The translations under genes were made by a program, and so were the position numbers. Positions 8,356 to 46,788 of a stretch of DNA of 57,719 bases are shown piece by piece. The DNA comes from a virus, in IMG/VR virus record IMGVR_UViG_3300012138_000001; one strand, written 5' to 3'. Position 1 is the first letter of the stretch; each line of letters starts with the position of its first letter. The notes below the pieces were generated by a model. It saw only the letters and a program-made list of their open reading frames with translations, did not search any database and was not told where the DNA came from.

Positions 8356-8678
8356 TAAGACACTCCTTATTAAACTAATGAGACTTTTCAGGAATTTTGC
8401 GCTATGTATTTTGTCAATCAATTCATGCAGTTCGCTTTTAAGACTTTCCACGTATACACACCCCTTTCACTGCCAGCAAGCCAGATATTCCTTACAGATT
8501 TGCCGATGTGTATATTATAACTGCACAACAACGTTATGTCAACAGGAAAATAGAACACAGGTTCGACTTGTTTCGACACGCAAAAGTATTTACCACAAAC
8601 CTTAAATTTGCCCCTGCTGCTAATGGAATTTTTCCGGCAAGGGTGCATTTTTATACTCAGGGTCAGGGAGGGACGATA

Positions 8679-9920
8679 ATGGCAAAAGCAAAAAAACTAC
8701 CCAGCGGCTCCTGGAGATGCCAGGCATACAGCCACAGCGAACCGGTTTACAAAAATGGCCAGCCGGTATTGGACGGGAACGGAAAGCAGAAGCAACGGCG
8801 GGTGTATGAATCCTTTACGGCTGGCAGCGCCAAAGAAGCCCAATATATGGCTGCGCAGTTTCAGATGGATAAAGACAAGGTCCCGGCAAAGAAATCGGCC
8901 GCACGCGGTGATATGACGCTTACAGAGGCGATTGATAAGTATATCGACAGCCGTGTCCCGCTGGAACGCTCCCCTACAACCATCCAAGACTATCGGTGTA
9001 TCCAAAAATGCGGCTTCCGCGATTTGATGGACATGCAGTTAAAGGATTTTGATGAAGAAATTTTACAGGAAGCAGTCAACATGGAATCGCAGCGAAAATC
9101 TATTAAAAACGGTATTAGAACTATCTCCGCAAAGCGATTAAGAAATGAGTGGGCTCTTATTGCTGCCGTTTTGAAAAAGTATCGCAAAGAGCTTGTATGT
9201 GAGGTGGAATTGCCTCCAATAAAAGAACGGGTACCGGAACTGTTGCCGGCAAAAACCGTGATAGATATCATTCGTGGTACCGAAATCGAATTAGCCGTAT
9301 TATTAGCCGCATGGTTATCATTTTCTATGTCAGAAGTGCGCGGTTTGACAAAATCAAAATCTATATCAGGGGATTGCATCAGGATCGCAGAGGTTATTGT
9401 TGATGTTTGCGGCAAGCCCATCCGCAAGGACATGGCAAAGAATCAATACCGGAATCGTACCCATCATATTCCACCTTACATTATGCAGTTGATTCATCAG
9501 GTAGATGGTGATATACTTGTACCGATGAGCGGACACACTTTGTACCGCCGGTGGATTCGATTATTGAACGACAATGGCCTACCGCATATGACCTTTCATG
9601 ATCTGCGCCACCTTAGCGCGTCTATAATGGCTCTGCTTCGAATACCCGATAAATATGCGCAAGAAAGGGGAGGTTGGAAATCTGATCAGATAATGAAACG
9701 CGTATATATGCAGACGCTTCCTGACGAACGGAGAAAAGTGGATGCCATGATTGATAATTATTTTGAAAATATAATAAAACCAGAGGTCGGCGAAGTTGAC
9801 CAAAAAAAATATCAAGCGTGGCTTGTCTTGTTTGAAAAAGAAGATTCGGAAGATTCAAAAAATGAATTTTTATTGTTCATGCAACACGAAAAACAACACG
9901 AACCGGGAAATTCAACGTAA
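8679..9920 (+). CDS. int: tyrosine recombinase / phage integrase (413 aa)
   Basis: GGGAGGG before ATG 8679 (MAKAKKLPSGSWRCQAY); C-terminal HDLRHLSAS...GGWKSDQIMKRVY catalytic region. Confidence 0.95.
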   Translation: MAKAKKLPSGSWRCQAYSHSEPVYKNGQPVLDGNGKQKQRRVYESFTAGSAKEAQYMAAQFQMDKDKVPAKKSAARGDMTLTEAIDKYIDSRVPLERSPTTIQDYRCIQKCGFRDLMDMQLKDFDEEILQEAVNMESQRKSIKNGIRTISAKRLRNEWALIAAVLKKYRKELVCEVELPPIKERVPELLPAKTVIDIIRGTEIELAVLLAAWLSFSMSEVRGLTKSKSISGDCIRIAEVIVDVCGKPIRKDMAKNQYRNRTHHIPPYIMQLIHQVDGDILVPMSGHTLYRRWIRLLNDNGLPHMTFHDLRHLSASIMALLRIPDKYAQERGGWKSDQIMKRVYMQTLPDERRKVDAMIDNYFENIIKPEVGEVDQKKYQAWLVLFEKEDSEDSKNEFLLFMQHEKQHEPGNST

Positions 9921-10234: not shown

Positions 10235-10783
10235 TTAATATTTGTATCCCATCTTTTCTTCTTTTTTCTCGGCTGCATCGTGATTGTTATATTCTGTCGT
10301 CTCATAGATGTAAAGATCGTGCAGGGCAGTCCCCTGTGCTTTCATGTCAGCATACCTCTTGATCTTGCGGTTCAAGTCCACAATGGCACACTTGATGCAG
10401 CTGGCGCGCTCATATAGCGGGCAAGCCAAATCTCTAAGACAGAGCGGGGCCGCAAACATATTCGCGCTCTCCGTAATCTTCCAGTACATATCCCACAGTC
10501 CATTCCGATATTCCGCCAGAAATGTTTCGACACTATTGACGTTCGGAAACGACGCATTTGATTTCTGGGGATAAATCTCAACCTCGAACAAATCGAACGC
10601 TTCTGATTGCAGGTATTTTCGAATGTTTTCATCCTTGGTGCCTTCCATGCGTGCCTCTCGTTTTTTCCCCTGGATGCCCATGGATAAGGCCTTAACAAAC
10701 GCTGTATTTTCAAATTCTTCAAATGCATACAGATAATTCACGGTATTCTGAATCTGTCTTATGCAGTCGGCTTTATTGACCAT
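10235..10783 (-). CDS. hypothetical protein (182 aa), last gene of the unknown operon
   Basis: Packed co-directional ORF; Cys cluster CLRDLACPLYERASCIKC; followed by a GC-rich hairpin at 10187-10214. Confidence 0.7.
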   Translation of the reverse strand: MVNKADCIRQIQNTVNYLYAFEEFENTAFVKALSMGIQGKKREARMEGTKDENIRKYLQSEAFDLFEVEIYPQKSNASFPNVNSVETFLAEYRNGLWDMYWKITESANMFAAPLCLRDLACPLYERASCIKCAIVDLNRKIKRYADMKAQGTALHDLYIYETTEYNNHDAAEKKEEKMGYKY

Positions 10784-35374: not shown

Positions 35375-36250
35375 TTAGATGGATCCCTTGTTATGCGTAT
35401 ACACGCCCGTAAGCTTGTTGTCATAAACAAAGCAATCATGGTACAGCCGGAACTGGTATTTCCATTCATCCATATCCTGATTCACATCAGGATTAAACAG
35501 CTTCGGAACGGCCAGTTTTACAGCCTGTACAATCGCATTCGGCTGGATGATCATGAAATTTATAGGGCTTCCGCTAGGAACAAATCCCCAGTCATCCGTT
35601 CCCGTGCCGGGTTTCAAGTTAATGGCCATATAAAATCTTGCGGGCGGCACATAGGTAATCGGCATACCATTATACTGATTTGCGATAGTGTTAATGGTTG
35701 TGTCGCTCCCCCAGCGTCTGTCAAGGGCCTGATTCAGTGCGGGCTGCAAATCTGAATTAATGAACAGCCGTCTGCCCTCGGCGGTTACTTCCCCAGCGTT
35801 CATACTTCTGGTTCCTTCGTCGATTGCGTCAACGATGTTGTCACGATCGAGCACGCCGGCCACGCTCCCCGCGCCTTTTGCGGCATATTTCGCAAAGCGG
35901 TATGCATCTAATTCCGGAATCATGTGTTCGCGGGTGAAATTACCGATCAAGGTGCCGAATGTCAAGTTGAGGGTTTCCTCGTTGTCCATCCGGTCTACTC
36001 CAAGCTCGACACCGCGCTCGATTTCAAGCAGGAAATTTTTCCATACAGCTTTTGCTGATCCTCTCGGATAGCCGTTTTCTCTGTTGTAATCTCCGAATCC
36101 TTTTGTCGACACCTGTAAGTATTTAACCTCCGGCGTGTTGGTGAAATCGGGCTGAATAGCCGCATCCATTCCGGCGGTCATACTGTCGGCCTTGTAAATA
36201 AGGTCAACTATTGCTTGATATTTTGTTACTAATTCGATTGTGTTTGCCAT
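35375..36250 (-). CDS. major capsid protein (291 aa)
   Basis: Follows the scaffold gene; size and position; MANTIELVTKYQAIVDLIYK... Confidence 0.85.
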   Translation of the reverse strand: MANTIELVTKYQAIVDLIYKADSMTAGMDAAIQPDFTNTPEVKYLQVSTKGFGDYNRENGYPRGSAKAVWKNFLLEIERGVELGVDRMDNEETLNLTFGTLIGNFTREHMIPELDAYRFAKYAAKGAGSVAGVLDRDNIVDAIDEGTRSMNAGEVTAEGRRLFINSDLQPALNQALDRRWGSDTTINTIANQYNGMPITYVPPARFYMAINLKPGTGTDDWGFVPSGSPINFMIIQPNAIVQAVKLAVPKLFNPDVNQDMDEWKYQFRLYHDCFVYDNKLTGVYTHNKGSI

Positions 36251-43881: not shown

Positions 43882-45075
43882 TTACGCGCTGTGCCATTGC
43901 TTGGCCTTATCCAATATTGTCTTACAAAAATATCGCGTATCATCCATATGATGATCGTTTTCTTTCACAGGAACATCTTCGTCTTGAATTTTTTCGTTCC
44001 ATGTGTATAGCCCAAATTCCCTTATCGTTTCCTTGCAACAATCGCATATTTTAATTTTGCCGGATTCCAGCAAGCTTCCGGTAAGTCGAATTCCATCAAG
44101 CACTGAATTGTCAGCGGGAATCACCGGTACATATCGCTGCCTTAGCTCTGCAATAAACGAAGCTGCTGACGGATCGACAATCATGGCTGTTATGGGCAGG
44201 TCGCCAACGAATTTTATATAGTCATCCGCAAACTGCCTGTCTGTGCGCTGTTTGCTTTGCTCCCGCCCCGAATAGTGGTACTCTTTAATTTTATACCAAA
44301 TTGCATTGTGAAGCCCCCACAACCCAAATGTTGTAGGGTTTTGAGTGCCGTAATCGCAGCTTACATAATATCTTGTGTATGCACGCTGCTCTGATGGGAC
44401 AACATTAATTTTCTCGTTGAACATATCGTATATTCTTCCGGTTGCCTGAACCCAAAGTCCCTTGATGAATCTATCATGAAAAACACCGAGATATTCCTTG
44501 CTTACCTGATCTATGTATTCCTGTGTCAAAGAAGGATTATCTTTCATGTCGAATTTAATATTTTTCAGACCGAGTTCATCTTTGCGATCAAGATAATCTG
44601 ATTTTACAAAATTCATAGGCGAATCAGGGTTAGTGGTGCCCAGGAAGCAGGCGTTCGGTGTTCTTAAACTTCCCATGCAGCGCACAAGGAATGGCCGGTT
44701 CCACAGTGTTAATTCGTCGCCGTAGATAAACTCTGCCGTGCTCCCTCGTATCTTTGCCTCTGCCGATATGTCATTACATCCCTCAAGCTCGATGCGTATT
44801 CCGCAAATACTGGCCTTCTTCTGGTTTAGGCTATACTTGAAATCCCTCCCGTATTGCAGTGCCAACGGTTCGAGCACATTGCGCTCCAGTGTTGTCAGAG
44901 TGCGTCCAACAAAGAATATAAGCCCTTGGTTAGTGTAATTATTTACAATATGTTCAATGGCTTTGTGATTGCATATAAATGTTTTCCCGGATGAAATAGC
45001 GCCCTCGCATATCGTCATTCTTGGCAATGGGGATATCATGAATTCAGCCTGTTTTTTACTTATCGAAATTATCAC
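43882..45075 (-). CDS. terL: terminase large subunit (PBSX/Terminase_3-like, 397 aa)
   Basis: Walker A-like EGAISSGKTF; overlaps the TerS stop by 20 nt. Confidence 0.9.
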   Translation of the reverse strand: MIISISKKQAEFMISPLPRMTICEGAISSGKTFICNHKAIEHIVNNYTNQGLIFFVGRTLTTLERNVLEPLALQYGRDFKYSLNQKKASICGIRIELEGCNDISAEAKIRGSTAEFIYGDELTLWNRPFLVRCMGSLRTPNACFLGTTNPDSPMNFVKSDYLDRKDELGLKNIKFDMKDNPSLTQEYIDQVSKEYLGVFHDRFIKGLWVQATGRIYDMFNEKINVVPSEQRAYTRYYVSCDYGTQNPTTFGLWGLHNAIWYKIKEYHYSGREQSKQRTDRQFADDYIKFVGDLPITAMIVDPSAASFIAELRQRYVPVIPADNSVLDGIRLTGSLLESGKIKICDCCKETIREFGLYTWNEKIQDEDVPVKENDHHMDDTRYFCKTILDKAKQWHSA

Positions 45076-45637
45076 TCACCACCTTAAACGTTTCCCTTAG
45101 AGCCTCTAAGCGGGAATTATCTTTATCCTGTTCGCGCTCTGCTAATCCTAAGATATCAGCCAGTTTATACAGGGCCGTATCCCGGCAATAGGTTTTGAAC
45201 TTGAATTGTCCGTTTGCTCCGATGGATACCTCTGAAACATTTTTCGTCTTTATTGTCCTGCTGTCTTTTAGCTCTACGATTGGTGCGTATCCTATTATTG
45301 GTTCTCCGGTTTCCCGGTCGATCCCTACTTGCGTTTTCTCTGTTCTGAAATCAAGATAATTTGATATATCGTCTTTTGCAATTGAGACAATCTCCGCAAG
45401 TACTTCTTTCGCTGTGATAATAGTATCGTTTTCGGCTTCCTGAATCAGCCTATCACGTAATTCATTATACCTTGTCCGTACCTTGTCTATCTTAAACAGT
45501 TTACACGCTTTTGCGTCAACCGCTGCATCAGGGGCCTTGCAAGAAGGATATGCAGCGCGGTATGCTTCACGCTGGCTTTTGCCCTCTATTAATCCAAGCA
45601 CAAATTTTTCTTGCTTTTCGGTTAAGTTTTTGGCCAA
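45056..45637 (-). CDS. terS: terminase small subunit (Terminase_2-like, TTG start)
   Basis: LTEKQEKFVLGLIEGKSQREAYRAAYPS; GGTGGTGAG before TTG 45637. Confidence 0.85.
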   Translation of the reverse strand: MAKNLTEKQEKFVLGLIEGKSQREAYRAAYPSCKAPDAAVDAKACKLFKIDKVRTRYNELRDRLIQEAENDTIITAKEVLAEIVSIAKDDISNYLDFRTEKTQVGIDRETGEPIIGYAPIVELKDSRTIKTKNVSEVSIGANGQFKFKTYCRDTALYKLADILGLAEREQDKDNSRLEALRETFKVVSDNFDK

Positions 45638-45771
45638 AATATCTCACCACCGTTTCGTATTTCAAATGCCATCTATTCGGATGCCTAAACCATATACTCA
45701 ATAAATCATTTGCGCTTGCCTCTTGCGCCGCTTGCCTACCTCATAAGAGGATACCCACCTATTTTCCCTCG

Positions 45772-45811
45772 CAAAAAGAGACACCTGCCGCGCTAAGCAA
45801 CAAATGTCTCT
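45772..45811 (-). terminator. rho-independent terminator inside the TerS-upstream gap
   Basis: AGAGACA/TGTCTCT stem (45777-45811) followed by TTTTT on the minus strand. Confidence 0.6.
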
Positions 45812-46075
45812 TCCAAAGGAGAGCGTCATAAAACAATCGGAACATCCGGACTTGAACCGGAATCCTGCAACCGCACCCGGTTGCTGTTCAACCGCTGTAT
45901 CTTTGTCGAACTATATTCACCCAGCGTAGTTTTTCCCTTGTTTTTGCACAAGGTCGGGTTGCGCTACCACCTGTCGTAAGCATCCTATTTATTCCTTTTG
46001 CGAAGACGTGGACAATAGGTTAAGAACATCGTCTTCTAATCAGCGACCGGGCTTTGACACCCGGAAGCCGTATAT
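45812..46075 (-). ncRNA. candidate structured RNA with a canonical tRNA-type T-arm (class unknown)
   Basis: No ORF; stacked hairpins at 46047-46064, 46003-46036, 45936-45953, 45867-45884; T-arm TCCGG-TTCAAGT-CCGGA at 45845-45861; terminator follows. Confidence 0.3.
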
Positions 46076-46156
46076 AAAATTGGAGAGGAGGGACCGGGAA
46101 TTTAGGAACATTATCAGGGAGTTAATATTGTTCCCATTATCGCTAATACAGTTATA

Positions 46157-46591
46157 TCACACTATGTCGCTCAATTTGAACCCATTTTTCAAAAGATGCA
46201 AATTAAAGTAAAATAATCGGCGATATCCGTTAAAATCCGTCTTCCCCACCGGTATGCGTCCGTAATCCTGATCGTATTCAACCATTTCATACGGTATGTT
46301 CTTGGTCACGCTCCTCAATATGTGTCTGTATATGCTTGGGTTTGCACGGATCGCCGCCTCTTCTATCAGCTGGCAGTCTCTTCGCAGTTCCTCGTTTTGG
46401 ATGGCTGCCCCTTCCGTCTGGTTGCTCACACCGGTTCCGCGCGGCATCCCGTCAAACTTCACGGCGGGTAGTCCGTATTTTATCTTTTTCTTCTTTTCCT
46501 CATACTGGCGGCAGAATGCTCGAAGTTCATCGTATCTGTCTTTTGAGATGCCATAGTCATCCCAATTAAGGTCGCGTACTCTTTTGTTCAT
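46157..46591 (-). CDS. hypothetical protein in the position of a late-gene activator (RinA/ArpU-type slot), 144 aa
   Basis: GGAGGTG 7 nt before ATG 46591; last gene before the packaging module; function inferred from position only. Confidence 0.65.
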   Translation of the reverse strand: MNKRVRDLNWDDYGISKDRYDELRAFCRQYEEKKKKIKYGLPAVKFDGMPRGTGVSNQTEGAAIQNEELRRDCQLIEEAAIRANPSIYRHILRSVTKNIPYEMVEYDQDYGRIPVGKTDFNGYRRLFYFNLHLLKNGFKLSDIV

Positions 46592-46596
46592 TGGCA

Positions 46597-46788
46597 TCAC
46601 CTCCCATCATGCTCTCCGCTCCACGCCCTCTTTTCTGCATCCACCGCAAGCAGTATCGCTGTGTTTGCGCGCTCTTCCGACATCCCGAAATCTTCTGTCA
46701 ATATAGCCCTTGTCCCTGCTATCATGGTTGTCAGAGCGAAAAGTATGCTTCTGGGTGTAGATTCTGTCATGCAATTATTCATCATCAT
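46597..46788 (-). CDS. hypothetical protein (about 61 aa)
   Basis: GAGGAGGG before the ATGATGATG start cluster. Confidence 0.55.
   Translation of the reverse strand: MMMNNCMTESTPRSILFALTTMIAGTRAILTEDFGMSEERANTAILLAVDAEKRAWSGEHDGR

Follow-up and report, generated by a model that had tools for sequence, protein, structure and literature searches.

The late leader of phage lambda runs from pR′ through the 6S RNA to tR′ and is subject to Q antitermination, and in the Shiga-toxin phages tRNA genes are located downstream of pR′. The tRNAs carried by phages are usually explained by codon supply, and tRNA-like structures are also known as processing signals, as in the plant-mitochondrial t-elements and the MALAT1 mascRNA. 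In phages with Ltr-type regulators, the regulator gene lies directly upstream of terS, and a terminator in the intergenic region has been demonstrated (PMC3753634).

The window analysed here, a viral DNA of 57,719 nt, contains a 519-nt gap (45638-46156) that extends from the stop codon of a 147-aa ORF (46157-46600, minus strand) to the TTG start of terS; all features described below in this region are on the minus strand. An earlier note had described the gap as free of ORFs and its structure as belonging to the minus strand, and both statements are borne out: only short ORFs are present, their frames being broken by indels among relatives so that none is conserved, and the minus strand folds with z = −2.8 as against −0.7 for the plus strand. 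No match to the gap was returned by blastn from 50,697 phage records. In minus-strand order, the region comprises a strongly conserved block of 113 nt (an inverted-repeat hairpin, a CU-rich tract, a −10-like TATATA and a leader hairpin), an optional cassette of 203 nt, an intrinsic terminator with an 18-bp stem, and about 135 nt with two GGCAAGCG repeats and the ribosome-binding site of terS. Very probably, this stretch from a late-gene regulator to terS constitutes a control region and leader, and the T-arm element in its cassette is a non-decoding descendant of a tRNA. When this identity is combined with the working proposed below, the complete account is still, on balance, a probable one.

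The 147-aa ORF (likely start the ATG at 46591) encodes a candidate late-gene regulator, and terS is located immediately 3′ of it, as in the Ltr-type arrangement. The protein matches phrog_11237 (E 6e-17) and, weakly, phrog_248 ('transcriptional activator'), while no family was found in Pfam or NCBIfam, no sequence match in the PDB, and nothing by Foldseek against the PDB at E ⩽ 0.001. In its AF2 model (pLDDT 79.7), residues 64-139 show a weak likeness to sigma region 4 domains (best match: Z 5.3, rmsd 2.7 Å over 67 residues), which is no more than suggestive; such domains account for about half of the best 50 VIA structure matches, with Z at most 5.3. At most five amino-acid changes are seen among five regulator alleles, and the divergence at third codon positions is 11-30% among ten. 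Synonymous changes are lacking from the final 50-90 nt of the ORF, as would be expected if a promoter overlaps there.

The first feature of the conserved block is the inverted repeat UGGGAACA..UGUUCCUA, which forms a hairpin with an inner 5-bp helix (46104-46136). Of its 13 pairs, three vary on one side only, 97.7% of the cells are paired in 10 sequences, and the hairpin is kept in every cassette-less relative. It contains the GGAACA that had been placed at 46123-46128 and regarded as the only complement to the TGTTCC after the T-arm, about 290 nt away, so as to close the whole region like an acceptor stem. This closure has to be abandoned: GGAACA actually lies at 46129-46134, within its own conserved local hairpin, where it faces a TGTTCC at 46105-46110, and since this hairpin is present also in phages without the T-arm, GGAACA cannot be a sole complement that closes the region. 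Further along, the CU-rich tract and TATATA (46076-46071) together occupy 46068-46089, a few bases upstream of the second hairpin; they are invariant in 10 related leaders and would form a candidate promoter of the leader RNA, which was not reported by the consensus promoter scan. The order CCTCY, short gap, TAT(A/T)TT and hairpin recurs in phages that have a real tRNA after the hairpin, and the corresponding site of phage locus L037 reads TTGTTA-17 nt-TATATT. The second hairpin, CCGGGU-GUCAAA-GCCCGG (46047-46064), has an invariant stem in 10 leaders and aligns with the hairpin CUGCCGGG..CCYGGCAG, which in many phages directly precedes bona fide tRNAs; one pair occurs as G-C (12), G-U (7) or A-U (4), with zero mismatches in 23 sequences.

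At the other end of the leader, the intrinsic terminator (45773-45814) consists of an 18-bp stem (45814-45797 with 45791-45774), a UUAGC loop and a T5 run. The terminator recognised in the earlier note is thus real, but the stem described there was too short. In 10 sequences, 98.9% of its cells are paired, and seven pairs vary on one side only with pairing kept. The consensus terminator scan missed 45773-45814 because it limits stem and loop length. Between the terminator and terS there are two direct repeats of GGCAAGCG (45736-45729 and 45720-45713, together spanning 45713-45736), which we consider candidate regulator-binding repeats. They are conserved along with the regulator across phages whose terS differs, and the homology to other terS types stops at about 45705. 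The terS gene itself (45056-45637; PF03592, E 1e-12; phrog_51), the first gene after the gap, had no relative in the genome_contigs collection (one genome per species).

The 203-nt cassette (45841-46043) is bordered by the direct repeats CTGATT (46043-46038) and CCGATT (45840-45835), both fitting CYGATT. Its 5′ 123 nt form two hairpins, GAAGACG/CGTCTTC (46036-46002, ending one position beyond the 46003 noted before, the stem itself being present) and CCTTGT/ACAAGG (45953-45936). The positions assigned earlier to the latter, as well as to the CCGGG/CCCGG stem of the leader hairpin at 46047-46064, to GCAACCG-GGTG-CGGTTGC at 45867-45884 and to the T-arm at 45845-45861, are exact. Five of the 11 related leaders carry the cassette with an identical junction (the window, L123, L038, L086 and L098), and six do not (L003/L119, L004/L125, L120, L121, L122 and L124), so that any function it has is not essential. 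Two ORFs that span the insertion site, of 49 aa in L003 and 40 aa in L004, were considered and rejected as non-coding, given their unequal lengths and a 1-nt indel in the window. The window holds no second copy of the cassette, a 15-nt match at 10365-10379 being inside a coding ORF.

Two allelic types of the cassette can be distinguished, W (window and L123) and L (L038, L086 and L098). Within a type, the cassettes diverge by 7% (window-L123) or 2-4% (L038-L098), compared with 30% and 16% at the third codon positions of the adjacent gene in the same pairs, and all window-L123 changes within stems keep the pairing. Between types, the divergence of 16-22% compares with 21-26% at third codon positions. 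The cassette has probably been reshuffled between phages via homologous recombination in the near-identical flanks, and the low non-coding divergence could be due in part to recent recombination and not to selection.

The 3′ part of the cassette is an 84-nt element (45837-45920) that is recognised by a tRNA covariance model. This model, R1, was built from 34 real phage tRNAs with the element excluded, and matches it over its full length (model positions 1-73) with 29.9 bits and E 3.8e-5, or 1.5e-5 when the whole 57.7-kb window is searched with filters off; it is the only strong match in the window, the next scoring 17.7 bits. The acceptor 5′ strand GUGAAUA (45920-45914), in which pairs 1-72 and 2-71 are lost, is followed by U8 and A9, by a D-arm that has become a 7-bp hairpin without G18G19 (45911-45905 with 45892-45886), by a 7-bp stem with a GGUG loop in place of the anticodon arm (45884-45867), and by the variable loop AGGAU. 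The T-arm (45861-45845) has the 5-bp stem and UUCRANY loop of a canonical one (UCCGG-UUCAAGU-CCGGA, as had been recognised from the start) and is stacked directly on the acceptor 3′ strand UGUUCCG (45844-45838) and the discriminator A (45837). Taken alone, the window element has z = −3.2 and folds as three hairpins without acceptor closure.

At the same site after the same regulator, L038, L086 and L098 carry a version of 80 nt that takes the form of a cloverleaf in its minimum-energy fold. This type L copy has a perfect 7-bp acceptor (7/7 pairs, versus 5/7 in the window and L123, where 1-72 and 2-71 are broken), a D-stem and a T-arm, and its 17-nt anticodon arm has G32, G33 and U37, with no 7-nt loop containing U33. 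With the anticodon loop gone and, in the window allele, the top two acceptor pairs lost as well, the element cannot decode. Between the two types, the T-arm and acceptor 3′ strand (45861-45837) are invariant except for one T-loop base in L038/L086, and the 5′ 59 nt of the element differ by about 34%. A C-G to U-A change in the D-stem is compensatory; the covariation is thin, amounting to one compensatory event in four distinct sequences, and shuffled controls added no information on it.

Standard tools gave little for this element. ARAGORN called no gene in the window with default or -ps settings, apart from a poor 'tRNA-Cys(aca)' at -ps90, and Rfam at its gathering scores, tRNA RF00005 included, had no match in it; the E-value mode of Rfam added only chance-level hits (RsmY inside the regulator ORF, a snoRNA and a tmRNA of 8.6 bits). 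ARAGORN on nine terS relatives found nothing and Rfam on L038, L086 and L098 nothing relevant; the better copy of L038/L098 is uncalled by both programs. In an exact scan of viral contigs, the T-arm 23-mer and GGTGGTAGCGCAACCCGAC were absent, and the sole match of CAGCAACCGGGTGCGGTTGC, in a coding region of L035, was set aside as chance. The 21-mer GGATTCCGGTTCAAGTCCGGA had 23 metagenome matches, namely the T-arms of tRNA-Arg(CCT) and tRNA-Lys(UUU), two copies beside a tRNA-Gln, and REP-like palindromes, none of them in the cassette context.

The origin of the element is indicated by real tRNAs with the acceptor CGGAACA/UGUUCCG, mostly tRNA-Ile(UAU), at loci L036-L115. In nine of 10 sampled loci, these tRNAs are flanked by a regulator (phrog_36/248/11237) on one side and by terS or an HNH gene on the other. 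Of 59 contexts, 44 show stable folding (−8 kcal/mol or lower) immediately before the tRNA, often in the form of the CUGCCGGG..CCYGGCAG hairpin, and 39 have a terminator 3′. The element shares with them the acceptor 3′ strand, the discriminator A, U8 and A9, the D-stem register and the T-arm geometry, together with the genomic slot and the same hairpin directly 5′. It differs in having no 7-nt anticodon loop, in its oversized D region, in the broken pairs 1-72 and 2-71 of the window copy, and in being called by neither ARAGORN nor Rfam. As judged from this comparison of sequences, the element is a descendant of the tRNAs that many related phages carry in the same slot.

This descent also bears on the identities proposed previously. 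The tRNA-like reading of the earlier note stands in so far as the T-arm does derive from that of a tRNA, but neither of the two identities it attached to this, a degenerate tmRNA-like RNA (which it favoured) and a captured host tRNA/ssrA 3′ end, can be kept. As in a tmRNA, the T-arm is preceded by GGAU and the discriminator is A; Rfam aligns RF00023 with 45844-45988 (8.6 bits, E 0.53), ARAGORN reports a 'permuted tmRNA' at -ps80 only, and AAAACTACGCT is identical to the ENYA codons of the E. coli ssrA tag. However, the gathering score of RF00023 is 47, and its alignment leaves the acceptor out. The QGKNYAG frame with AAAACTACGCT is indeed in the sequence but is not conserved in L123 or L038/L098, the tag-like bases becoming AAAAATACGCT and AAAATACACT in the sister copies and type L having ACG for the ATG of the frame, which is also shifted. 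The G3-U70 pair is absent, G3-C70 being found in every register examined, just as the earlier note had anticipated, and the true 5′ partner by homology is 76 nt upstream of the T-arm, which makes an 80-84-nt, tRNA-sized unit. A mini-tmRNA closed by GGAAUA (45995-45990) lost out to this homology-defined local 5′ strand; a distal pairing of the same GGAAUA in type W is possible, since L123 has GGAACA there. The tmRNA reading, refuted by the sister-phage alignment, is scarcely credible. It is also very improbable that the cassette is a captured tRNA or ssrA end acting as a second attP core. The cassette does end in a T-arm and acceptor 3′ strand, and the flanking CCGATT overlaps that 3′ end, but the element also retains the 5′ tRNA half, five phages have it at one and the same position between regulator and terS, the 20-mer GGTTCAAGTCCGGATGTTCC occurs in no GTDB species genome (genome_contigs, one genome per species, among which the host itself may not be included), and the tyrosine integrase is encoded at 8508-9920, 36 kb away. 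A tiny protein-coding moron, in the form of a 31-aa ORF (45888-45983) whose ATG follows an AAGGA ribosome-binding site by 9 nt and which is intact in the window and L123, is hardly more plausible: all five window-L123 differences inside it change an amino acid, type L has ACG for the ATG and a frameshifting 2-nt deletion, the ORF overlaps into the tRNA-derived element, and the exact peptide is absent from a collection of 15 billion proteins.

How the leader works can be proposed only tentatively. Transcription would start at the end of the regulator gene and yield a leader RNA that either ends as a short transcript at the terminator or extends beyond it into terS. Enzymes that process tRNA ends (RNase P, RNase Z) may still recognise the invariant T-arm and acceptor 3′ strand and would then cleave the leader ahead of the terminator; the sites at which transcription starts and the RNA is processed, as well as terminator read-through, are all predicted. 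The late promoter could instead lie after the terminator, near the GGCAAGCG repeats, which would place the cassette in the 3′ UTR of the early operon and not in the late leader. Rather doubtful, in our view, is a neutral relic, that is, a decaying tRNA pseudogene in a junk cassette that sits in a tolerant spot of the leader and has no function of its own. The absence of the cassette from six of 11 related leaders would fit such a relic, as would the eroded acceptor, the missing anticodon loop and G18G19, the failure of ARAGORN and Rfam to call either the window copy or the better L038/L098 copy, and a between-type divergence near the third-codon-position level. Within a type, however, the cassette has changed about fourfold more slowly than third codon positions, the substitutions spare stems or keep pairing, the two types hardly differ in T-arm and acceptor 3′ strand, and type L keeps a perfect 7-bp acceptor, D-stem and T-arm. 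We think it unlikely that the stretch from the −10-like box to the terminator is a stand-alone, trans-acting sRNA gene (about 95 nt without and 300 nt with the cassette) and that, jointly with this, terS has its own promoter after the terminator. sRNA genes are usually built in this way, with a −10-like box, a 5′-end hairpin, a linker and a strong terminator; the segment from the terminator to terS has an AT-rich stretch besides the two GGCAAGCG repeats, and a terminator ahead of the terS promoter has been described (PMC3753634). Yet in L037 and L051, which have the same hairpin and layout, the next gene starts about 35-45 nt past the terminator and leaves no room for a separate promoter, and the consensus scan gave no convincing sigma-70-type promoter after the terminator. 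The sRNA reading and the account preferred here do not exclude each other.

Although the tRNA here has lost its anticodon loop, the T-arm and the 3′ strand of the acceptor are invariant, and the element occupies the slot between late regulator and terS, before a terminator, where real tRNAs stand behind the same hairpin in many phages. Together, these two features suggest that the shape of the tRNA as such has a role when the late transcript is made or processed. It may even be, though we think it unlikely, that phages of Clostridia-type bacteria keep a family of non-decoding tRNA-shaped RNAs under purifying selection in a fixed late-leader slot (in the order promoter, conserved 5′ hairpin, tRNA or tRNA-like element, terminator). 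The invariant T-arm/acceptor minihelix would then be a signal for cutting or loading, through which enzymes of tRNA processing, or else an antitermination factor, are linked to the late switch. This phage and its 54-kb sister provide a natural presence/absence pair for the cassette. For annotation, it is of consequence that elements of this kind escape the usual tRNA and Rfam tools.

Like the lambda-type leader, the locus has a candidate promoter where the regulator gene ends, followed by a short, structured leader with a strong terminator that late transcripts would have to pass, and tRNAs occur in the leader in both. In contrast, the regulator has no homology to Q and a poor structural match to it (Z 4.8, rmsd 8.6 Å), the passenger is a non-decoding tRNA derivative, and antitermination would here be conjectural. 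With the t-elements and mascRNA, the element has in common that only the acceptor/T-arm part of a tRNA is under constraint within a longer transcript; it differs in belonging to a bacterial virus, with processing as a proposal. Relative to the Ltr-type late control regions (RinA, ArpU, LtrA-C; PMC3152322, PMC3753634), the regulator matches no described Ltr Pfam family, and the hosts there are Staphylococcus, Enterococcus and Streptococcus, as against a Clostridia-type bacterium here. Neither paper mentions a tRNA or tRNA-like element in these regions ('tRNA' occurs 0 times in each). A sigma-region-4-like C-terminal half may link the regulator to theirs (weak likeness here, Z at most 5.3). In both, a small regulator precedes terS, the intergenic region has repeats and a terminator (experimental in PMC3753634, predicted here), and the regulator keeps its adjoining DNA when one terS module is exchanged for another.

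The gap at 45638-46156 is bordered on one side by the stop codon of a 147-aa candidate regulator ORF (46157-46600, minus strand) and on the other by terS (45056-45637, minus strand, TTG start; PF03592, phrog_51). Its structure is strand-specific, with a fold z-score of -2.8 for the minus strand versus -0.7 for the plus strand. The hairpins listed for it in the earlier note were all found at the coordinates claimed or at most one base off, except for GGAACA, which had been placed at 46123-46128 as the distant closure of the whole region; it actually lies at 46129-46134, and a TGTTCC that can pair with it is close by, at 46105-46110. The first hairpin of the leader, at 46104-46136 (minus strand), holds the 6-bp helix GGAACA/UGUUCC, which also occurs in the acceptor stem of the tRNAs described below; it scored 9 bits with R1, a covariance model built from 34 distinct real phage tRNAs only, and could be the gutted relic of a second tRNA, unless the likeness is a coincidence. 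The claimed terminator (AGAGACA/TGTCTCT plus T5) is also present, although with a longer stem than had been read, namely 18 bp (45814-45797 with 45791-45774, minus strand) around a UUAGC loop and followed by the T5 run. Just 5′ of it, CUCUCC (45817-45826, minus strand) can pair with GGAAGAG (45808-45814), the 5′ strand of the terminator stem, and this pairing, invariant across 11/11 leaders, is a possible antiterminator alternative. Two direct repeats of GGCAAGCG (45713-45736, minus strand), 16 nt from start to start with 8 nt between them, lie 3′ of the terminator and 5′ of terS; they are conserved together with the regulator and might serve as binding repeats.

In two close relatives found via terS (L003, a record of 54 kb, and L004), the gap is ~93-95% identical to that of the window, and both lack the 203 nt matching window 46043-45841. 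The missing piece, or cassette, contains the T-arm together with the hairpins GAAGACG, CCTTGT and GCAACCG, and has CTGATT at its left border and CCGATT at its right; L038 has an 8-bp flanking repeat (TTCCGATT). A scan for an invariant leader 20-mer collected ten related loci. The cassette is carried by the window, L123, L038, L086 and L098 and is absent from L119 (same record as L003), L125 (same record as L004), L120, L121, L122 and L124, with an identical junction in every case; it is dispensable. Since carriers and non-carriers are interleaved in regulator-gene divergence, the presence and absence alleles appear to have been reshuffled, the simplest route being homologous recombination within flanks that are almost identical; the flanking repeats may also have led to repeated deletion. 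Three different terS types stand behind the same regulator, leader and terminator (window ~45705, minus strand; L038, L120, L121, L122 and L124), and homology among leaders with different terS stops just after GCGCAAATAATT, a break that marks a sharp module-exchange junction. The terS cluster (P0123 and P0124 included) divides sister phages of 57,719 and 57,737 bp from those of 54,002 and 54,084 bp, a difference of ~3.7 kb that is more than the cassette accounts for.

Directly after the window's T-arm comes TGTTCCG, the 3′ strand of a CGGAACA/TGTTCCG acceptor stem. When viral contigs were scanned with a pattern for tRNA-like elements having this acceptor, 83 stretches matched; most of the 80 listed (L036-L115) are real tRNAs of 69-74 nt, and ARAGORN, run on part of the matches, called tRNA-Ile(UAU) for most. 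An aberrant 80-nt form is carried by L038, L086 and L098 (type L), which share with the window the regulator gene, the leader and the entire cassette, in the same place, and have a different terS. Window 45920-45837 (84 nt, minus strand; type W, shared with L123) can be aligned with this 80-mer end to end, part by part: the acceptor 5′ strand is GUGAAUA in the window and CGGAACA in type L, the D-stem GUUC/GAAC and GCUC/GAGC, respectively, while both have U8 A9, a hairpin as anticodon arm, the T-arm UCCGG-UUCAAGU-CCGGA (with G for A in the T-loop of L038/L086), and UGUUCCG followed by the discriminator A. R1 matched the window at 45837-45920 (29.9 bits, E 3.8e-5, model positions 1-73), L123 at 33 bits and L038/L098 at 55 bits, and gave no match on the cassette-less loci. 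Over the whole window with filters off, only 45837-45920 was strong (E 1.5e-5); the runner-up, at 35645-35706 on the plus strand (the genes near the gap use the minus strand), reached 17.7 bits (E 0.02). Folded in isolation, type L forms a cloverleaf and type W three hairpins with the 5′ strand unpaired. By this full-length alignment, the R1 matches and the folds, the element derives from a tRNA. A 7-nt anticodon loop is missing, the D region is oversized, and acceptor pairs 1-72 and 2-71 are gone in the window.

The earlier suggestion of a tmRNA-like RNA did not hold up. ARAGORN found neither tRNA nor tmRNA in the whole window, and Rfam gave nothing at gathering score; in E-value mode the tmRNA model reached 8.6 bits (gathering score 47, E 0.53) with the T-arm alone, leaving the acceptor unaligned. 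The ENYA-like AAAACTACGCT is not kept among sisters, reading AAAAATACGCT in L123 and AAAATACACT in type L. Lowering the thresholds made ARAGORN report a poor 'tRNA-Cys(aca)' at 45921-45838, and lowering them further a 'permuted tmRNA'. A captured host tRNA/ssrA 3′ end serving as attP was likewise rejected: a 20-mer over the T-loop and acceptor occurs in no species genome of genome_contigs, the tyrosine integrase lies at 8508-9920, and the 5′ half of the tRNA is also present. The 31-aa ORF at 45888-45983 is not retained as a gene, all five of its changes relative to L123 being non-synonymous and both ATG and frame being lost in type L. Separately, a 24- to 26-nt palindrome, GGATTCCGGTTCAAGTCCGGAATGAC (7-bp stem, T-loop-like loop), is identical in eleven metagenome contigs (L018, L019, L021, L023, L024, L026 and L028-L032); the flanks are unrelated and no tRNA is present, and the palindrome has the look of a REP-type repeat or of one that marks the end of an element.

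We have also sampled the neighbour genes at ten loci with real tRNAs of this acceptor stem. The upstream ORF is a transcription regulator at nine of them (phrog_36, 248 or 11237, the last being the family of the window's own regulator), and the ORF that follows is terS at five and codes for an HNH endonuclease at two. In 44/59 distinct contexts the sequence directly 5′ of the tRNA folds stably (-8 kcal/mol or lower), and in 39/59 a terminator lies within 250 nt 3′ of the tRNA. In many contexts the 5′ structure is a hairpin, CUGCCGGG..CCYGGCAG, that aligns with the window stem at 46047-46064; one of its pairs is G-C, G-U or A-U with no mismatch (n=23 sequences), and a -10-like TAT(A/T)TT box always lies 5′ of it. 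At L037 and L051, two of the acceptor-pattern matches, the next gene begins 35-45 nt past the terminator, and late genes there must therefore be read through it.

Among relatives, the regulator protein is nearly unchanged while third codon positions differ by 11-30%. Divergence is 1-9% in the 113-nt leader block and 0-10% in the terminator region, where seven one-sided changes keep the pairing. For the cassette it is 7% between the window and L123 (third positions 30%), 2-4% between L038 and L098 (third positions 16%), and 16-22% between types W and L. None of the 15 differences between the window and L123 breaks a pair: they lie in loops or linkers, or replace one pair by another (G-U by A-U in the D hairpin, G-C by G-U in the hairpin of the anticodon arm). 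Between the types, a single T-loop base is all that varies in the T-arm and acceptor 3′ strand (45861-45837), versus ~34% difference in the 5′ 59 nt of the element. Pairing holds in 98% of cells versus 41-49% with partners slid, at a variation too low for a shuffle control, and one compensatory pair, in the D-stem, was seen. In the window family, synonymous differences are almost absent from the final 50-90 nt of the regulator ORF (window 46160-46250). An overlapping signal is likely there, and a promoter that extends into the 3′ end of the gene would fit; a candidate is TTCAAA followed, after 18 nt, by TGATATAAC across the stop codon.

To the anatomy, tRNA descent, dispensability and conservation pattern shown here, the best explanation adds a leader RNA that would start near 46066 and either end at 45773 or read through into terS, and whose conserved T-arm/acceptor part may give RNase P or RNase Z a handle. 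It has two main rivals. That the element is a functionless relic, a reading to be set beside both the lost acceptor pairs and the invariant 3′ part, strikes us as rather doubtful. We consider it unlikely that the region forms a small-RNA unit of its own and that terS has its promoter 3′ of the terminator, where the GGCAAGCG repeats lie and where, at L037 and L051, little room is left; such a unit is compatible with the leader-RNA explanation, and the two are not exclusive.

Pfam, NCBIfam and PDB sequence searches gave no match for the regulator. Its homologues fall into 190 unnamed clusters (E <= 0.001; window protein and P0127-P0246) with no Pfam domain, one member coming from an Oliverpabstia MAG. 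In its AF2 model (pLDDT 79.7), residues 64-139 give weak, consistent matches to sigma region 4 domains, the best with Z 5.3 and an rmsd of 2.7 Å over 67 residues. Phage-genome tRNAs and pseudo-tRNAs are already known, as are Ltr control regions and terminated leaders of the lambda type; what the literature searched apparently does not describe is a non-decoding tRNA derivative in a fixed, optional late-leader cassette behind a hairpin common to real-tRNA leaders. The Ltr superfamily has been described, and a terminator demonstrated in the ltr-terS intergenic region (PMC3753634). A terminator lies between regulator and terS in the present region too, and the weak sigma-region-4 matches make the regulator compatible with, if not proven to belong to, the Ltr superfamily.
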